A stretch of 64,000 nucleotides of DNA from Escherichia phage vB_EcoP_HC-25922. The position numbers and the translations under genes were made by a program. Of this stretch, positions 270-59,883 are shown one piece after another (the first letter of the stretch is position 1; each line of letters begins with the position of its first letter). A model generated the notes under the pieces. That model was not told where the DNA came from. It worked only from the letters and a program-made list of their open reading frames with translations, and did not search any database. The stretch lies in the sequence record OQ555404.1; one strand, written 5' to 3'.

Positions 270-1351
270 TGGCAAATGATTATATTGACCCGAACGATTT
301 TAAATCTTTCCTCCAACTAGACGACTTAAAAGGCTCCTTCAAAGAAGAGCTTAGTCAATTAGAATCAGAACGTGAACCAGAAGTGAACATTGATGATGAA
401 TTCCCAGAACAGTCTGAGACTTTTGATCTTGATGCTTCCGACCTTCTCGGTGATGACGATACGTTAGCGTTCGAAGATGAAGATGGTTGGGAAGATCGTG
501 AAGAGGAAGGCGAAGAAGAAGAGGAAGAGTCTGAGTTCTCTGATGAAGACGATGAAGAAGATGATTCCGGTGAAGCAGATCACGATGAAGCTGCTAACAG
601 TGATGAAGATGGCGAAGAAGGTGAAGTCTTTGACGTAGATTATGAAACTGTTATCACCCTTCCTGATGGTCGTGAGATGACTATTGAAGAGTTGTCTAAT
701 GGCTATTTGACTGGTGCAGAAATGTCCGAACGTGAGACTACTTTGCAGCGTCATGTTGAAGCTTTTGAAGAACGTGTTTCTGGCTTGGGTGATGTATTAG
801 AACTAGCTGCCCTAGAAGCAGACCGAGTAATTGAAGATTACAACGGTTTTGATTGGGACAAACTCGCACAAGAAGATCCTCAAGCTTATGTAGAAAATAA
901 ACGTTTCTTAGAAAAATATACAGCTCGTCGCCAACAGCTTGAACAAGCTCAGCTTAAAATCAAGCAAGAAGCACTAGCAAAAGAACAACAGCTCTTCCAA
1001 GCTAAATGTACTGAGTGTGTAAGCGTACTTAAACGTGAGATTCCTAATTGGGATGACAACTTGTATCAGAACCTGATGCAGTATGCAATCGACTTAGGTG
1101 CTACAGAAGAAGAAGTGCTGAAAGAGAACCGTCCGTCAATCTTCCTAGCTCTACACAAAGCATACCAGTTTGATAAAGGTAAGCAGCAGGTGATGGCTAA
1201 GATTAAACGTCCCGGCTCTCCACGCAAGGTTGTGAAGTCCGATGCTTCTAAGTCTCGTTCTTCCAATACGCCAGACAACGCTAAGGTTGCCAAGGCATTC
1301 TCAGAGGGTCGTATTCGTCACGAAGACGCATTTAAGTATCTCGTAGATTAA
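269..1351 (+). CDS. putative capsid scaffolding protein
   Basis: 360 aa with a long D/E-rich acidic tract and helical C-terminal half; lies immediately upstream of the capsid gene as in T7-like head modules. Confidence 0.5.
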   Translation: MANDYIDPNDFKSFLQLDDLKGSFKEELSQLESEREPEVNIDDEFPEQSETFDLDASDLLGDDDTLAFEDEDGWEDREEEGEEEEEESEFSDEDDEEDDSGEADHDEAANSDEDGEEGEVFDVDYETVITLPDGREMTIEELSNGYLTGAEMSERETTLQRHVEAFEERVSGLGDVLELAALEADRVIEDYNGFDWDKLAQEDPQAYVENKRFLEKYTARRQQLEQAQLKIKQEALAKEQQLFQAKCTECVSVLKREIPNWDDNLYQNLMQYAIDLGATEEEVLKENRPSIFLALHKAYQFDKGKQQVMAKIKRPGSPRKVVKSDASKSRSSNTPDNAKVAKAFSEGRIRHEDAFKYLVD

Positions 1352-1391
1352 TCGACAAATTTATTTTTAATAGTATAGGAGCTAATATAAC

Positions 1392-2450
1392 ATGGCAAAT
1401 CCAACTTTATTTGTATCTTACGACCAGAATGGTAAAAAACTTTCTTTTGCTAACTGGATTTCTGTCCTGTCTCCGCAAGACACTCCGTTTGTGTCTATGA
1501 CTGGTAAAGAGTCTATCAATCAGACTATTTTCAGCTGGCAGACCGATGCTCTGGCGAGCGTAGATGCTAACAACGCCCACGTCGAAGGCTCTCGTGCTGA
1601 AGACGGCGAAATGAAACCGACTGTAATTAAGTCCAACGTTACTCAGATCCTGCGTAAAGTTGTTCGTGTTTCTGATACTGCTAACACCACCGCTAACTAC
1701 GGTCGTGGTCGTGAACTGATGTATCAGCTGGAGAAGAAAGGTAAAGAGATTAAACGTGACCTCGAGAAAATCTTGCTGTCCGGTCAGGCTCGTACCGATA
1801 TTCTGGCAGACCAGTATCTGACCAACTCTGCAACTGATCCTGCTGTTGTAGGTCAGAATGATACCTCAGCTGCTCGTAAGACTGGTGCTTTCCAGTTCCT
1901 GTGTGCACACAATGGTGTTGCTGGTGGTGTTGTTAAGAAAGAAGATGGTCCTGCTGACCCGGATACTGGTGCAGTAACTGTTAAAGTTGCACAGAATGCT
2001 TCTAACCCGACTACTAACATCGGTTTTGATGAAGCTGATATCTTTGATATGACTCTGCAATTGTATACCGCTGGTTCTGAAGCAGACATCATCATGATTA
2101 ACCCTGCTCACGCTAGTATTTTTGCTAAGCTTCAGGAAAACTCTGTTGGTTCTCGTCAGCGTATCTTTGAGAACACCAAACAGTTCATCTATGAAGTTAA
2201 CAGCATCACTGACCCGCTGGGCCAGAGCTATAAAATCATCGTTAACCGTTGGATGCCTGCTGATGCAGTTTACTTCTTCCGCAGCTCTGACTGGACTCAG
2301 ATGGTTCTTCGTGCTCCGAAACGTACTGAACTGGCGAAAGATGGTTCTTACGAGAAATGGATGATCGAAATGGAAGTTGGTCTGCGTCACCGCAACCCGT
2401 ATGCTTCTGGTGTACTGTTCACTGCTGCGGGAAAGGTGGGAGCGGCGTAA
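1392..2450 (+). CDS. major capsid protein (short isoform)
   Basis: 352 aa, AGGAG RBS upstream, follows scaffold gene, carries a -1 frame overlapping extension analogous to T7 gp10A/10B; size matches T7-like capsid proteins. Confidence 0.6.
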   Translation: MANPTLFVSYDQNGKKLSFANWISVLSPQDTPFVSMTGKESINQTIFSWQTDALASVDANNAHVEGSRAEDGEMKPTVIKSNVTQILRKVVRVSDTANTTANYGRGRELMYQLEKKGKEIKRDLEKILLSGQARTDILADQYLTNSATDPAVVGQNDTSAARKTGAFQFLCAHNGVAGGVVKKEDGPADPDTGAVTVKVAQNASNPTTNIGFDEADIFDMTLQLYTAGSEADIIMINPAHASIFAKLQENSVGSRQRIFENTKQFIYEVNSITDPLGQSYKIIVNRWMPADAVYFFRSSDWTQMVLRAPKRTELAKDGSYEKWMIEMEVGLRHRNPYASGVLFTAAGKVGAA

Positions 2451-3229
2451 CAGTAGATTCCGTAACTGTTAGTCCTTCGTCGGTTGCAAGCCTTCCGACG
2501 GGGGCTACTCAGCAGTTTACAGCTACAGCAGAAATGAGCGACGGCTCCACAAGCACAACCGGATTTAATTGGTCCGTTGAGGGCGGTGGGGCTGTTTCTG
2601 TTTCTGGGCTATATACTGCACCGAGTACGTCGCAAGAAACCCCAGCAACTATTACGGCTACTAAAGGTGGTAAGTCAGGTACTGCTACAGTTCTATCTGT
2701 TTTTGAACCTGCTACTATTGAAGCCAAAGCTAACATCTCGGGTAAAGTAGGTGGAAGCACCACAGCTTTTACTACAATGTTTACAGCAACTAACTCTTCA
2801 GCAGAAGATTATTCTTTTGTTGTATCTCCAACGTCAGCAGGAACCGTTAGTGCCGCAGGAGTTTTAACTTTAAGTAATGATGCAACTGGCACAGTTACTG
2901 TTAAAGCAACTCATAAAACTCAGTCAGGTGTTGAAGCCACTATAACCTTTACAGGTGTTGTTGCTAAAGCAGCTATTACTGGAAAAACCGTCACTGGTAA
3001 GGTTGGTAGTGATACTGTTACGTTTGCTGAGTTATTTACAGCAACTAACTCTTCAGCAGAAGATTACAACTTCGTATCAAGTCCTCCTGAAATGACTTCA
3101 TCTATCGATGAGAGCACTGGTCTTGTTACCTTGGCTGCTGGCGCTACAGGTGATATCACAATTACTGCTACTCACAAAACACAAACGTCTGTGACAGCAA
3201 CTGCTACGATTACGGTGGTATCAGAGTAA
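1392..3229 (+). CDS. capsid protein long isoform by programmed -1 frameshift (capsid fused to two Ig-like repeats)
   Basis: zero-frame slippery heptamer G_GGA_AAG at 2429-2435, 16 nt before the stop; the -1 frame (ORF 2357-3229) is open and encodes a duplicated module (FTATNSSAEDY...ATHKTQ...). Confidence 0.5.
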
Positions 3230-3336
3230 CTGTTATTCTACTAGCACTTATTGTCAGTGCAGGTGTGAAAATTACATTTAGAAAGAGTTCTGGTGTTTTC
3301 TGTAATCACTATGTTAAATCTAGTACATAAGAATAA

Positions 3337-3365
3337 AGCTGCCTTCGGGCGGCTTTTCTTGTTTT
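3337..3365 (+). terminator. rho-independent terminator
   Basis: hairpin AGCTGCC-TTCG-GGCGGCT followed by TTTTCTTGTTTT. Confidence 0.6.
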
Positions 3366-3387
3366 AAGACCTATACACGACCGAATG

Positions 3388-3396
3388 TAATGTATA
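3388..3396 (+). promoter_or_regulatory. TAATGTATA promoter-like motif (candidate phage-sigma promoter)
   Basis: exact 9-mer 33 nt upstream of the ATG at 3430; same motif and spacing recur at 20077 and 35772. Confidence 0.45.
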
Positions 3397-3429
3397 TTCT
3401 TTGTCTACATACAACTAGGAGGACAATCT

Positions 3430-4182
3430 ATGGCTATGCCAGACGTTCAGAACCCAATTAATACCTACGGATGGCTTAAGAAGGCTGTGTCCCTCTGGGC
3501 CGACCGTGATGACCCTGAATTTGTTAATCAGATTCCGAACTTTATTAACTTTGCAGAAAAGGAAATCTATCGTAATTTACGTATTCCTCCTTTGGAAAAA
3601 GAAGTATACTTAGATATTAAAGATGGTGTGGCTTTTATTCCACCAGACTATTTAGAAGCTCAGTGGATGATGAGAGCCAAAGATGGCACAATCTTCCAAG
3701 TAACCTCTCCTGAAGAGATTAGCTATCGTAGACAGCATGGAACAATTAACCCATCTCACTGGAATAACCAACCTGTCAACTTTGCTCGTTTCGGTAGTCG
3801 TTTCATTTTCTACCCTAGCATCGAAGCAGATACCCCGTACTACCCTGATGATGGAAGCCCTTTGATTCCAGCAGAAAACTCAGTGATTCTTAGCTATTAT
3901 GCAGACCCACCGGAATTCCATGAAGATACAGATACTAGTACTATTCTTACTATAGCACCGGAACTTCTTCTGTACTTCACCCTACGTCATGCTTGTCTCT
4001 TTGTTCAAGATGATAATGGTGTTCAGAAATGGTCAGCATTAGGAAAAGCTATCCTTGATGAAATGGTAGAACAGAATAAGAAACAAGAGTACTCAGGTTC
4101 ACCTATCGCAATTCCGAATAACATGACTCGACTTCAGAGCAGCTTGCCTGATATTTATGGTATTCGTACTTCTCGTGTATAA
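3430..4182 (+). CDS. virion structural protein (putative adaptor or tail tubular protein)
   Basis: 250 aa ORF with AGGAGG RBS, first gene after the capsid terminator/promoter; function inferred from position only. Confidence 0.35.
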   Translation: MAMPDVQNPINTYGWLKKAVSLWADRDDPEFVNQIPNFINFAEKEIYRNLRIPPLEKEVYLDIKDGVAFIPPDYLEAQWMMRAKDGTIFQVTSPEEISYRRQHGTINPSHWNNQPVNFARFGSRFIFYPSIEADTPYYPDDGSPLIPAENSVILSYYADPPEFHEDTDTSTILTIAPELLLYFTLRHACLFVQDDNGVQKWSALGKAILDEMVEQNKKQEYSGSPIAIPNNMTRLQSSLPDIYGIRTSRV

Positions 4183-4191
4183 GGAGATAAT

Positions 4192-6552
4192 ATGATCGTT
4201 TATAATAACCAAGCACCTGATGCAGTGAATAACGTTGGGCAGTTTGGTGCTACTGAAGGCTCTATTGGAGCTTATAAGCAAGCCGCAGAATATGCAGCTG
4301 ACTCCAAATATTGGGCACTGTTAGCAGAGTCTAAGTTTGGTACAATTGATGACCTGATCGCTGAAGTAGAACGTTTGTATCAGCAAGGTGTTCTGATGAA
4401 GCAGGATATCGAAGATCTTAAGCAGGACTTTAAAGATCAAGATGCTCGTCTGATGAGTTTGATTGCTCAAACTAACGCAGCGGTATCAGATGCGAATAAT
4501 GCTGTAGCTCTAATTAATCAGAAACTTATTGAAGTCCAGAACCAGCTTGACGTTCTGTTAGGAATGTCCGTTGATGTAACCACACTTCCTCCGGGAACTC
4601 CGGCTACTGGTTCTTTTAATCCTAACACTGGTGTAATTTCTTTAGGTATCCCAGAAGGCGAACCCGGAAAGGATGGTTCTGTTAAGGATTTAGACACAGC
4701 TCCTACTGGTGTTCCAGAGCTAGGTGACTTGGGTTTCTATGTTGATAAAGATGACAATACCGTCCATAAAACTACTCTAGAGAATATTGCTAACTTAATC
4801 CCATCTGTTCGTTCTGTTTCTGTTAATGGGGGACCAGCTCTTGATGGAGAGGTTGCTCTAACAATCAACAAAGAGACAGTAGGTTTAGGAAATGTTCTGA
4901 ATGTTGCTCAGTACAGTCGTCAAGAGATTAATGACAAATTTGACAAAACTACCAAGACATACCAATCAAAAGCAGAAGCTGATGCTGACGCTCAGTATCG
5001 TCAAGTTGGTGAGAAAGTCTTAGTCTGGGAAGCTACTAAGTATGAGTTCTACACTGTTGCTGCTAACAAAACATTAACTCCAGTTAAAACTGAAGGTAGA
5101 ATTCTTACCGTTAACTCCCGTTCTCCAGATTCCAGTGGTAACATTGACATTACCATTCCAACAGGAAACCCTTCTCTGTATCTTGGTGAGATGGTGATGT
5201 TCCCTTACGACCCATCTAAGAATATCTCCTACCCAGGAGTTCTTCCTGCTGATGGTCGTCTGGTATCAAAAGAATCTGCTTCAGATTTAGGCCCATCCCT
5301 TGTCAGCGGACAGCTCCCTGTTGTTTCAGAAACTGAATGGCAATCGGGGGCTAAACAGTACTTCTCTTGGGGCAAGTTAGCAGACGGTATTACCGATGCG
5401 GATTCTACTAATTTTATCAACATTCGACTCCCTGATTGGACTGGAGGGGAGGCAATAAGAGCACCAGATTCTGATAAAGACTCTCAGTACAATGGGTCTG
5501 TACAGGCTCAGAAACCTTATGTTGTTACTGTAAATAACCAAGCTCCTGATGAGATTACTGGTAATGTGAACATCTCCAGATCAATTTTAGGTGCTGCTTC
5601 TTCTGGAGCAAACTCTGACATTACATCTTTATCTGGACTCACAACACCGCTATCCATCTCTCAAGGTGGTACTGGAGCTAAAAATGCTGCTAGTGCCCGA
5701 TCTAACTTGGGGTTGGGGAGTGTTTCCACTCTAGATAACGTCCCTATCGCTAGTGGTGGGACAGGGGCTGGAGATGCTGCTGGTGCAAGGTTTAATCTTG
5801 GGTTAGGTAACTCAGCCACAATGAATACCGGAACTAACAGTGATAATGTTCTTAAGGTTGGTGATTTTGGAATTGGAAGACCTGACGGCGCTCTTGTTTT
5901 TGATACTACTTCACAAGACCAACTTCTTGCTGGACTTGACACTTATGGGTTGTGTGTGTTTAGGAATAACCAACAAATAGCAGCACCTTGGGACATATGG
6001 AACTACTCCTCAAACCTTTTCTTTAGGGCGGGTGACACATACAGTATGATAAGTATTCCGTTTGAGTCTGCTGGTAAGATAAAAGTTTTTGGTGGTGCAT
6101 CGGGCAGTGGGTGGAAAACCTCAAGGACGATATACGATACTATAAATACAACTGTTGACGTCAATGGCTTTATTAAAGCAGCGTCACCAATAGTTAAGGT
6201 ATTTCATGACGGAAGTTTTGAAACAAATGAACAATCTGATGGAGTTAGTGTTAAGAAAATCTCCACCGGGGTTTATTTAATTTCAGGGTGTCTTGGTCTT
6301 AATTCTGATGCAGGATGGGGTGGGGTAGATGGAGGTTTTGAAATCCCAATAGACCGAAACAAACAACCTAGAGTCTGGCTGGATTATGAGATTAAAGAAG
6401 ATGGTTCTATTTTAGTTAAAACTTATCACAGAATCCATCCAACCTCTCCGGTTTTTGCTAGAAATGAGATAGAAGGTTTCTCTGACGGCGATCCTATTGA
6501 TATCCCGAGTGATGCTTTTATCTCAGTTCGTGTTGAAATGCCATCCAAATAA
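4192..6552 (+). CDS. tail fiber protein
   Basis: 786 aa; C-terminal part has repeated GGTGA...AR.NLGLG tail-fiber-type repeats. Confidence 0.5.
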   Translation: MIVYNNQAPDAVNNVGQFGATEGSIGAYKQAAEYAADSKYWALLAESKFGTIDDLIAEVERLYQQGVLMKQDIEDLKQDFKDQDARLMSLIAQTNAAVSDANNAVALINQKLIEVQNQLDVLLGMSVDVTTLPPGTPATGSFNPNTGVISLGIPEGEPGKDGSVKDLDTAPTGVPELGDLGFYVDKDDNTVHKTTLENIANLIPSVRSVSVNGGPALDGEVALTINKETVGLGNVLNVAQYSRQEINDKFDKTTKTYQSKAEADADAQYRQVGEKVLVWEATKYEFYTVAANKTLTPVKTEGRILTVNSRSPDSSGNIDITIPTGNPSLYLGEMVMFPYDPSKNISYPGVLPADGRLVSKESASDLGPSLVSGQLPVVSETEWQSGAKQYFSWGKLADGITDADSTNFINIRLPDWTGGEAIRAPDSDKDSQYNGSVQAQKPYVVTVNNQAPDEITGNVNISRSILGAASSGANSDITSLSGLTTPLSISQGGTGAKNAASARSNLGLGSVSTLDNVPIASGGTGAGDAAGARFNLGLGNSATMNTGTNSDNVLKVGDFGIGRPDGALVFDTTSQDQLLAGLDTYGLCVFRNNQQIAAPWDIWNYSSNLFFRAGDTYSMISIPFESAGKIKVFGGASGSGWKTSRTIYDTINTTVDVNGFIKAASPIVKVFHDGSFETNEQSDGVSVKKISTGVYLISGCLGLNSDAGWGGVDGGFEIPIDRNKQPRVWLDYEIKEDGSILVKTYHRIHPTSPVFARNEIEGFSDGDPIDIPSDAFISVRVEMPSK

Positions 6553-59804: not shown

Positions 59805-59883
<79 letters not shown>

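Follow-up and report, generated by a model that had tools for sequence, protein, structure and literature searches.

A predicted programmed −1 frameshift joining the major capsid protein of Escherichia phage vB_EcoP_HC-25922 to three Ig-like domains

Fusion of a capsid protein to Ig-like domains by −1 frameshifting has been published for the group of phages to which Escherichia phage vB_EcoP_HC-25922 belongs (PMC9965538, PMC4281155, PMC7881722), and the feature considered here is already known, the same heptamer and a long capsid isoform having been described for this group. In SU10 the heptamer is GGGAAAG and the long isoform was detected by mass spectrometry (38.5 and 55.4 kDa), while Proteus phage Privateer carries GGGAAAG and yielded two bands supported by mass spectrometry. 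Heptamer and long isoform are likewise attributed to phiEco32 where that phage is cited in the Privateer and SU10 papers. YF01 has the same heptamer and a GenBank record in the form of a joined CDS, and NC-B is listed in the group table of the YF01 comparative paper. Outside the group, the lambda G/G-T pair uses the same G_GGA_AAG heptamer with about 3.5% slip (as cited in PMC9965538), and capsid frameshifting in T3 and T7 is cited at about 10%. The extension of T3 gene 10 is Ig-like whereas that of T7 is not (Atkins et al. 2016, PMC5009743). As summarised in PMC5009743, Fraser et al. 2006 described Ig-like domains at the C-termini of virion proteins, which ribosomes reach either by reading straight on or after a +1 or −1 shift.

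The window, a 64,000-nucleotide stretch of vB_EcoP_HC-25922 (sequence record OQ555404.1), belongs to a coliphage of the phiEco32/SU7-like type (Gordonclarkvirinae) and includes its late-gene capsid module. Its ORFs at 269–1351, 1392–2450, 2435–3229, 3430–4182 and 4192–6552 correspond to scaffold, capsid, Ig, adaptor (virion structural protein) and tail fibre, an order that matches the records of phiEco32, SU7, Bas86 and YF01. The nearest relative is phage NC-B, 98.4% identical over the query. The zero-frame major capsid protein gene (1392–2450, plus strand, as are all features below unless stated) encodes 352 aa, a short isoform of 38.6 kDa, and ends at a TAA stop codon at 2448–2450. In Pfam the protein matches SU10_MCP PF17236 and no other family (E 2.6e-79), and in the PDB it matches the solved major head protein of SU10, 7z45_A (E 1.3e-221).

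A preliminary description of this DNA, made from the sequence alone, proposed that a programmed −1 frameshift fuses the capsid protein to Ig-like domains, and none of the alternatives accounts so well for the signal, the frames, the selection, the conservation and the literature. The slippery heptamer G_GGA_AAG lies where that description had placed it, at 2429–2435 in X_XXY_YYZ register and 12 nt 5′ of the capsid stop codon, with zero-frame codons GGA (2430) and AAG (2433). No other X_XXY_YYZ heptamer stands in register in the capsid gene, which uses GGA for glycine only twice (2430 and 2439) against GGT 19 times and GGC three times. Being both the sole in-register heptamer of the gene and built on a disfavoured GGA codon, the heptamer goes beyond chance. 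Three other GGGAAAG copies occur in the window (35130, 56349 and, on the minus strand, 27239), all of them out of register with long ORFs. The ends of the capsid ORF (2450) and of the −1 ORF (2357–3229) were likewise given correctly; position 2357 is the first ATG of the frame, whose last upstream stop is a TGA at 2327 and which is open between 2330 and 3229. Between 2357 and 3229 (290 codons) this frame has a single stop, whereas the two alternative frames have 10 and 26. Together, an in-register heptamer, an open and selected −1 frame, a downstream ORF lacking its own start and conservation of the heptamer mark this as a very probable programmed −1 site.

The −1 frame extension (2435–3229) comprises 264 codons and a TAA stop at 3227–3229. 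The predicted fusion has 612 aa and 64.3 kDa, close to the roughly 65 kDa first estimated, with a predicted frame junction of FTAAGK followed by GGSGVTVDSV or, as a junction peptide, ...NPYASGVLFTAAGK and then GGSGVTVDSVTVSPSSVASLPTGATQQFTATAEMSDGSTSTTGFNWSVEGGGAVSVSGLYTAPSTSQETPATITATK. Where two Ig-like repeats had been described, the duplicated modules are present but the extension holds three domains in all. Domain 1 (2453–2686, extension residues 7–84) begins right after the capsid stop codon and is a Big_2 domain; Pfam matches the extension to Big_2 (PF02368) in three stretches, at 39.7 bits against a cut-off of 22.8, the best stretch being 7–84. The strands of domain 1 occupy residues 6–86 in the AlphaFold model. 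Over the first 80 residues it is 74% identical in amino acids to phiEco32. That this domain sets in as early as extension residue 7, where the capsid stop codon lies, favours fusion to the capsid protein. Domain 2 (2714–2959, residues about 94–175) is the FTATNSSAEDY...ATHKTQ module, a beta domain modelled by AlphaFold with pLDDT of about 85–93, and domain 3 (2972–3220, residues about 180–262) is its duplicate. The two share 43 of 85 residues, a score reached by none of 300 shuffles, and a perfect 32-nt direct repeat (2780–2811 and 3035–3066) lies 255 nt, or 85 codons, apart, which bears out the internal duplication noted at the outset. The whole extension is modelled as three beta domains (pLDDT 78.6), and its Foldseek matches are tandem Ig arrays: LigA Big domains, titin I67–I69, invasin and FdeC. 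Values of dN/dS are 0.12–0.26 in the Ig frame and 0.98–6.55 in control frames, covering codons from the capsid stop onwards, and indicate that the extension is under purifying selection.

Compared with the Kuravirus-like phages (phiEco32 gp11 with gp12, SU10 gp9 with gp10, YF01 gp8, and Privateer), the locus has the same capsid family, heptamer, direction of shift, first Big_2 domain and gene order; only the make-up of the extension differs. Its three Ig-like modules amount to 264 aa here, whereas YF01 has 540 aa, Bas86 459 aa, and phiEco32 and SU7 about 178 aa each. Scans of viral contigs and metagenomes returned 11 and 18 loci respectively, sufficient to assess conservation but holding few independent events for covariation statistics. 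GGGAAAG is found 9–12 nt before the capsid stop in the Kuravirus-like relatives and does not change at all across 16 distinct junction sequences, whereas the three to four codons behind it differ and contain indels. Capsids only 59–66% identical still have a −1 extension that holds Big_2 domains. In distant relatives the slip site is a variant, G_GUA_AAG, closely followed by a G-C hairpin; others encode short and long capsids as tandem paralogues that are 71–74% identical, and in others again the capsid is fused in frame to Ig modules (for example P0017/L016 and L028). These in-frame fusions, which join the same capsid fold to Ig modules of the same kinds, show that a C-terminal Ig array on the capsid protein is viable. 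Both the in-frame and the shifted solutions thus occur within this capsid family, which adds one more instance to the rule of Fraser et al. In SU10 itself, the published cryo-EM map and gel reveal no long isoform, which is explained by a 1-nt difference in its sequence that gives a premature stop 13 codons after the slip site. SU10 also shows that the laboratory phage can do without the long form.

Classical stimulators of −1 frameshifting lie 5–9 nt 3′ of the heptamer; such structures, or a Shine-Dalgarno-like element 5′ of it, are common but not obligatory. The CGTCGG/CCGACG hairpin that was first suggested in this role is real: it was folded as 63 nt (2460–2522) and is placed at 2462–2520, with a core at 2474–2504 in which CGTCGG (2478–2483) pairs with CCGACG (2495–2500) and an extended outer stem, RNAalifold lengthening the stem. 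Its MFE is −25.8 kcal/mol (z = −4.5), a stability equalled by none of 200 shuffles, and one of its pairs, at alignment columns 84–98, appears as U-A, G-C and A-U, is never broken and has a covariation score above those of 500 of 500 shuffles. Its outer stem, however, lies 27 nt and its core 39 nt beyond the heptamer, and at such a distance it is unlikely to be a classical stimulator; we rejected it as the canonical one. A proximal candidate hairpin (2439–2478, 3–8 nt past the heptamer, core stem 2448–2454 with 2465–2471) may act as a stimulator. Its MFE is −13.1 kcal/mol (z −1.9) and 96.6% of cells are paired across 16 sequences with no compensatory change, a conserved pairing potential that is not statistically distinguishable from chance, and it was not accepted as an established stimulator. 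The stem-loop drawn in the SU10 paper (CTGCTGCGGGAAAGGCGGCGG) was also rejected, as it contains the slip site and its 5′ arm would be inside the ribosome during the slip; no compensatory support was seen for the RNAalifold pairs at that stem-loop.

The same region has been read as a separate gene with its own start, whose product would decorate the head or serve as an accessory protein without being joined to the capsid protein. The Bas86, SU7, NJ01, phiEco32 and SU10 records annotate a stand-alone 'Ig domain containing protein', and in the SU10 cryo-EM paper gp10 is regarded as perhaps a minor component of the capsid that is loosely bound. The annotated starts nevertheless disagree among records, being a mid-domain ATG in Bas86 and a GTG in SU7 and phiEco32 that is GTA in the window. 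From 2330 to 2760 the only start codons in the −1 frame are ATG 2357 and ATG 2534, and a Shine-Dalgarno sequence was found at neither. The former is within the capsid gene and in most relatives does not belong to the open stretch of the −1 frame, while a start at the latter would cut the first 33 residues off the Big_2 domain, and independent initiation was rejected on these grounds. Purifying selection that is already present from the capsid stop onwards and the invariance of the heptamer also speak against a separate gene, which we regard as improbable. Transcription points the same way as fusion. A well-formed intrinsic terminator with a 9-bp stem (5 G-C pairs) and a T-rich tail is located at 3335–3366, 3′ of the extension ORF, and a terminator is annotated at the corresponding site in SU10. 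From the capsid stop to the first Ig-like domain the plus strand has no comparable stem-plus-T-run terminator, and the sole other plus-strand match (2573–2590) fits the consensus less well and lies within Ig-like domain 1.

Two further explanations bear on the heptamer itself. The long isoform might arise by transcriptional slippage of RNA polymerase or by slippage of a single tRNA on A_AAG alone; distant relatives that keep only A_AAG behind a poor P-site codon, as in G_GUA_AAG, suggest that the lysine codon is the essential element. Tracts known to support transcriptional slippage are far longer than the runs of three G and three A present here, and all 16 Kuravirus-like sequences keep the heptamer whole, with its disfavoured GGA, which makes either route very improbable. 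Alternatively, the −1 ORF could be untranslated, left over from the acquisition of an Ig-domain cassette, next to a heptamer that arose by chance, as might be argued from the viability of SU10 with its long form lost and from the wide spread in extension length between close relatives (174 to 540 aa beyond the capsid stop). We find this hardly credible: low dN/dS is confined to the Ig frame, stops are depleted in that frame alone, an in-register X_XXA_AAG is expected by chance at about 0.01 within the 40-codon overlap (by our own arithmetic), the feature is kept across capsids 59–95% identical, and proteomic detection has been reported in relatives.

The reading that we hold with high confidence on the sequence evidence is that programmed −1 slippage at G_GGA_AAG produces a long capsid isoform carrying three Ig-like domains that would co-assemble into the head. 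In the proposed mechanism, for which we infer slip frequency, virion incorporation and function as well as the trans-frame protein itself, most ribosomes would stop at TAA 2448–2450 and release the 352-aa major capsid protein. A minority would slip back one base at 2429–2435, where tRNA-Gly would exchange GGA for GGG and tRNA-Lys AAG for AAA, and would read the 264 further −1 codons to give a 612-aa, 64.3-kDa capsid protein ending in the Ig-like array. This long form would join the prolate head as a minor subunit with its array on the capsid surface, where it would probably adhere weakly to cell-surface or mucosal glycans. If slip were a few percent, by analogy with the 3.5% to 10% known elsewhere, roughly 25–70 long subunits would be expected per 715-subunit SU10-type head.

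Comparison with better-known systems places this mechanism. The lambda G/G-T pair likewise depends on a −1 slip at this heptamer in a phage of E. coli, with a low and fixed ratio of products; it concerns a tail assembly chaperone, however, whose long product is not in the virion and whose extension is not Ig-like, whereas the gene here encodes a capsid protein. The initial comparison was with T7, and it holds for the mechanism, as T7 10A/10B and T3 gene 10 both yield a minor, longer subunit through a −1 shift close to where the major capsid gene ends. The capsid family is unrelated and the slippery sequences differ, so that the likeness is one of mechanism only, and the T7 extension is short and not Ig-like; T3 is the closer analogue. 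In phage T4, Hoc, one of several Ig-like head decoration proteins that have genes of their own, is a separate protein that binds assembled capsids and is dispensable in the laboratory. Both Hoc and the predicted array here would place Ig-like domains on the surface of a prolate capsid, but in vB_EcoP_HC-25922 they would be built covalently into some of the capsid subunits.

It is conceivable, if doubtful, that the ratio of short to long capsid protein is actively set and structurally meaningful in this capsid family, with the distal hairpin partly competing with the proximal helix as an RNA switch that tunes slip rate or mRNA fate, and with the long form at defined lattice positions. The idea stems from the differing genetic routes by which short and long forms are obtained and from the covarying hairpin at a non-canonical distance. 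As a lattice example, 55 penton subunits among 715 amount to 7.7%, a figure within known slip rates.

None of what the frameshift reading means is new in principle, and for vB_EcoP_HC-25922 it is mainly a matter of annotation. Most GenBank records of the phage group, including RefSeq phiEco32 and SU7, annotate the Ig ORF separately, and this separate-gene annotation is wrong. The capsid gene should instead be given a joined ribosomal-slippage CDS for a 612-aa minor capsid protein, in place of a separate Ig gene with an arbitrary start. For the family, the consequence would be a variable array of Ig modules on the head of phages that are under development against pathogenic E. coli, one that spans the 174 to 540 aa range among capsids at least 92% identical. 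Such an array may affect adhesion to cells or mucus, and it constitutes a natural site for capsid display.

A programmed −1 frameshift fusing the capsid protein to Ig-like domains is supported, with minor corrections to the preliminary description that proposed it, by evidence observed in this analysis: the slippery signal, the reading frames, an extension that is under selection and has no start of its own, and conservation across the family. GGGAAAG lies at 2429–2435, within the capsid gene, where the zero-frame codons GGA (2430) and AAG (2433) place it in the register G_GGA_AAG, an X_XXY_YYZ pattern. Following a TGA at 2327, the −1 frame stays open from 2330 until the stop at 3227–3229; its first ATG is at 2357. 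The coordinates first described are correct (capsid end 2450, −1 ORF 2357–3229, in-register heptamer 2429–2435), and over 2357–3229 the −1 frame holds one stop, against 10 and 26 in the other two frames. No other in-register X_XXY_YYZ motif occurs in the 352-codon capsid gene, and by our own arithmetic the chance of an in-register X_XXA_AAG within the 40-codon overlap is about 1 in a hundred. GGGAAAG occurs three more times in the 64-kb window, in no case in register with a long ORF. Glycine is encoded in the capsid gene by GGT (19), GGC (3) and GGA (2), never by GGG, one GGA lying inside the heptamer at 2430 and the other at 2439. The predicted fusion of 612 aa has a mass of 64.3 kDa, compared with 38.6 kDa for the short form, the capsid protein alone.

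The Ig-like ORF lacks a start codon suited to independent translation. Its −1 frame contains just two candidates from 2330 to 2760, ATG 2357 and ATG 2534, and neither has a Shine-Dalgarno sequence. The former lies 26 codons upstream within the capsid gene and is unavailable in most relatives, where the open −1 frame reaches back no more than about 60 nt from the heptamer; the latter lies 33 residues inside the first Ig-like domain. The Big_2 domain occupies extension residues 7–84 (Pfam) and thus begins at the capsid stop codon, and upstream of it the capsid gene itself is the sole possible translation start. For the 'Ig domain containing protein' the annotated start differs by record, being a mid-domain ATG in Bas86 and a GTG in SU7 and phiEco32 that reads GTA in the window. 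As a matter of annotation, the Bas86, SU7, NJ01, phiEco32 and SU10 records give the Ig ORF as a separate CDS with differing, non-homologous starts, the major capsid gene is left without any CDS in the NJ01 record (JX867715), and among the records examined a joined slippage CDS is found only in the GenBank record of YF01.

The extension is a protein under selection. Over the first 80 codons past the capsid stop, in the window and four relatives, dN/dS is 0.12–0.26 in the Ig frame versus 0.98–6.55 in two control frames. AlphaFold, given a 16-sequence alignment, models the extension as an all-beta protein of three distinct domains (mean pLDDT 78.6): a recognisable Big_2 domain at residues ~6–86, an FTATNSSAEDY...ATHKTQ module at ~94–175 and its duplicate at ~180–262. 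Foldseek matches this model to tandem Ig-like arrays, namely LigA Big domains, titin I67–I69, the SU10 nozzle Ig domains, invasin and FdeC, and the two results together indicate three Ig-like domains. The duplication first described is real, as a perfect 32-nt repeat (2780–2811 and 3035–3066, 85 codons apart) and module identity at 43 of 85 positions attest (none of 300 shuffles scored as high). The count of two repeats, however, becomes three Ig-like domains with the Big_2 domain ahead of the duplicated modules.

The CGTCGG/CCGACG stem proposed downstream (2478–2483 with 2495–2500) is the core of a stable 63-nt hairpin at 2460–2522 (MFE −25.8 kcal/mol, z = −4.5, none of 200 shuffles as stable). 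Across 16 sequences a core pair is U-A in nine, G-C in five and A-U in two, broken in none, and the covariation score exceeds 500 of 500 shuffles, with few independent events among these related sequences; RNAalifold lengthens the helix outward. Frameshift stimulators work about 5–9 nt downstream of the slip site, whereas this hairpin stands 27 nt from the heptamer at its outer stem and 39 nt at its core, and it is therefore rejected as a classical stimulator. A candidate proximal helix (2439–2478; core 2448–2454 with 2465–2471) starts 3–8 nt past the heptamer, and 96.6% of its cells are pairable, through invariance and one-sided changes only (z −1.9). The lambda tail-chaperone frameshift uses the same heptamer with ~3.5% slippage (as cited in PMC9965538), so no stimulatory structure need be assumed in the window. 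Past the extension ORF, a well-formed intrinsic terminator lies on the + strand at 3335–3356 with its T-run; the only other + strand match (2573–2590) is a weaker consensus fit within the first Ig-like domain.

The region comes from a phiEco32/SU7-like coliphage (Gordonclarkvirinae) and constitutes its late structural module. Scaffold (269–1351), major capsid gene (1392–2450, TAA stop 2448–2450), Ig-like ORF, adaptor/virion protein (3430–4182) and tail fibre (4192–6552) follow in an order identical to that of Bas86, SU7, YF01 and phiEco32. The capsid protein belongs to Pfam SU10_MCP (E 2.6e-79); among solved structures it matches that of the SU10 major head protein, 7z45_A (E 1.3e-221). A database search with 1300–3400 matched 125 phage records in all, chiefly Escherichia phages of the Kuravirus/Suseptimavirus group, including Phage NC-B (MK310183; 98.4% match, 100% query coverage), which is listed in the group table of the YF01 paper (PMC9965538). 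That paper's table also gives one tRNA for most group members (PMC9965538). In the window, Rfam places a tRNA on the − strand at 59805–59883 (36.4 bits against a gathering score of 29), with 4 nt in the D-arm region versus 15 expected, a variable region carrying a 20-nt insertion and an anticodon loop CUUCUAA, the anticodon probably being UCU (Arg) as read from the sequence; ARAGORN reported no tRNA over the entire window.

The heptamer and preceding codons do not vary among 16 distinct Kuravirus-like junction sequences, in which the next three or four codons are variable with indels. The shell is conserved, with capsids at least 92% identical (92–95%), and the −1 extension is its modular, rapidly changing appendage, reaching 174–540 aa beyond the capsid stop. 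Compared with Bas86, SU7, L015 and L021–L023 (further relatives' loci), window 2435–3229 stands out as a hotspot where modules are gained and lost, and an HNH endonuclease gene directly after the Bas86 Ig ORF (4116–4628) is absent from the window. The SU10 record (KM044272; locus L036) has one extra base relative to phiEco32 within 1391–1440 of that locus, just past the capsid stop. This puts its Ig ORF into the frame of the capsid gene, with two stops in front of it, and a −1 shift ends after 13 codons. This 1-nt difference accounts for the long isoform missing from the SU10 cryo-EM map and gel, and shows that growth in culture does not depend on the long form. SU10 has been described as the sole loss of the two-form capsid in the group (PMC9965538); our reading of its sequence agrees with that account and conflicts with a 2014 report of a 55.4-kDa SU10 form.

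The window feature is the published capsid frameshift of this phage group and is already known. The SU10 genome paper found GGGAAAG and, by MS, 38.5- and 55.4-kDa forms 'as in phage phiEco32' (PMC4281155), Privateer has the same heptamer, with two bands on a gel and detection by MS (PMC7881722), and the capsid protein of 'YF01 and other group phages' takes two forms through GGGAAAG (PMC9965538). The window matches this Kuravirus-like system on every feature tested. The analogy with T7 holds for mechanism only, as the capsid family is unrelated to the T7/T3 gene 10 family and the T7 extension is not Ig-like while that of T3 is (PMC5009743); that phage structural proteins acquire Ig-like domains, either in frame or through a frameshift, is a general rule reviewed in the same source. 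A few percent of ribosomes would slip at the heptamer, the long form may co-assemble into the head, and its Ig array could provide weak adhesion. With the ~3.5% of lambda or the ~10% of T3/T7 (as cited in PMC9965538) applied to the 715 subunits of an SU10-type head, roughly 25–70 long subunits per virion would be expected.

More distant SU10_MCP relatives reach short and long capsids by other routes. In four loci with capsids 59–66% identical (L009–L012) the −1 frame continues through the capsid stop and encodes 88–169 aa past it, with Big_2-type domains in L009–L011 and another Ig-like module in L012. Their site (~4412–4460; also in L026, L027 and L030) is G_GUA_AAG, which gives poor P-site re-pairing, and in L009–L011 it is succeeded within 1–6 nt by a compact G-C tetraloop hairpin (−10.8 to −12.7 kcal/mol). 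L014 has A_AAA_AAG, yet an extension of only 42 aa. Tandem capsid genes occur in L014 (capsid motifs at 3266 and 4371), in P0017 (L016; 996–1943 and 2001–3506) and in L028 (1922–2923 and 3001–4758), the latter two each having one short gene and one fused in frame to Ig-like modules, and the capsid parts of these pairs being 71–74% identical; in L013/L029 a second capsid gene immediately follows the first. P0017 carries the module type of window domains 2 and 3 fused directly after '...NPFASGVLELTPP', and such natural in-frame fusions show a C-terminal Ig array to be compatible with the SU10_MCP capsid fold. The points of mild interest left are the covarying distal hairpin and these alternative genetic routes across the SU10_MCP family, for which a regulatory or position-specific reading is improbable. 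Tandem capsid genes are a gene-duplication route to the short-plus-long outcome, for which Kuravirus-like phages use frameshifting instead.
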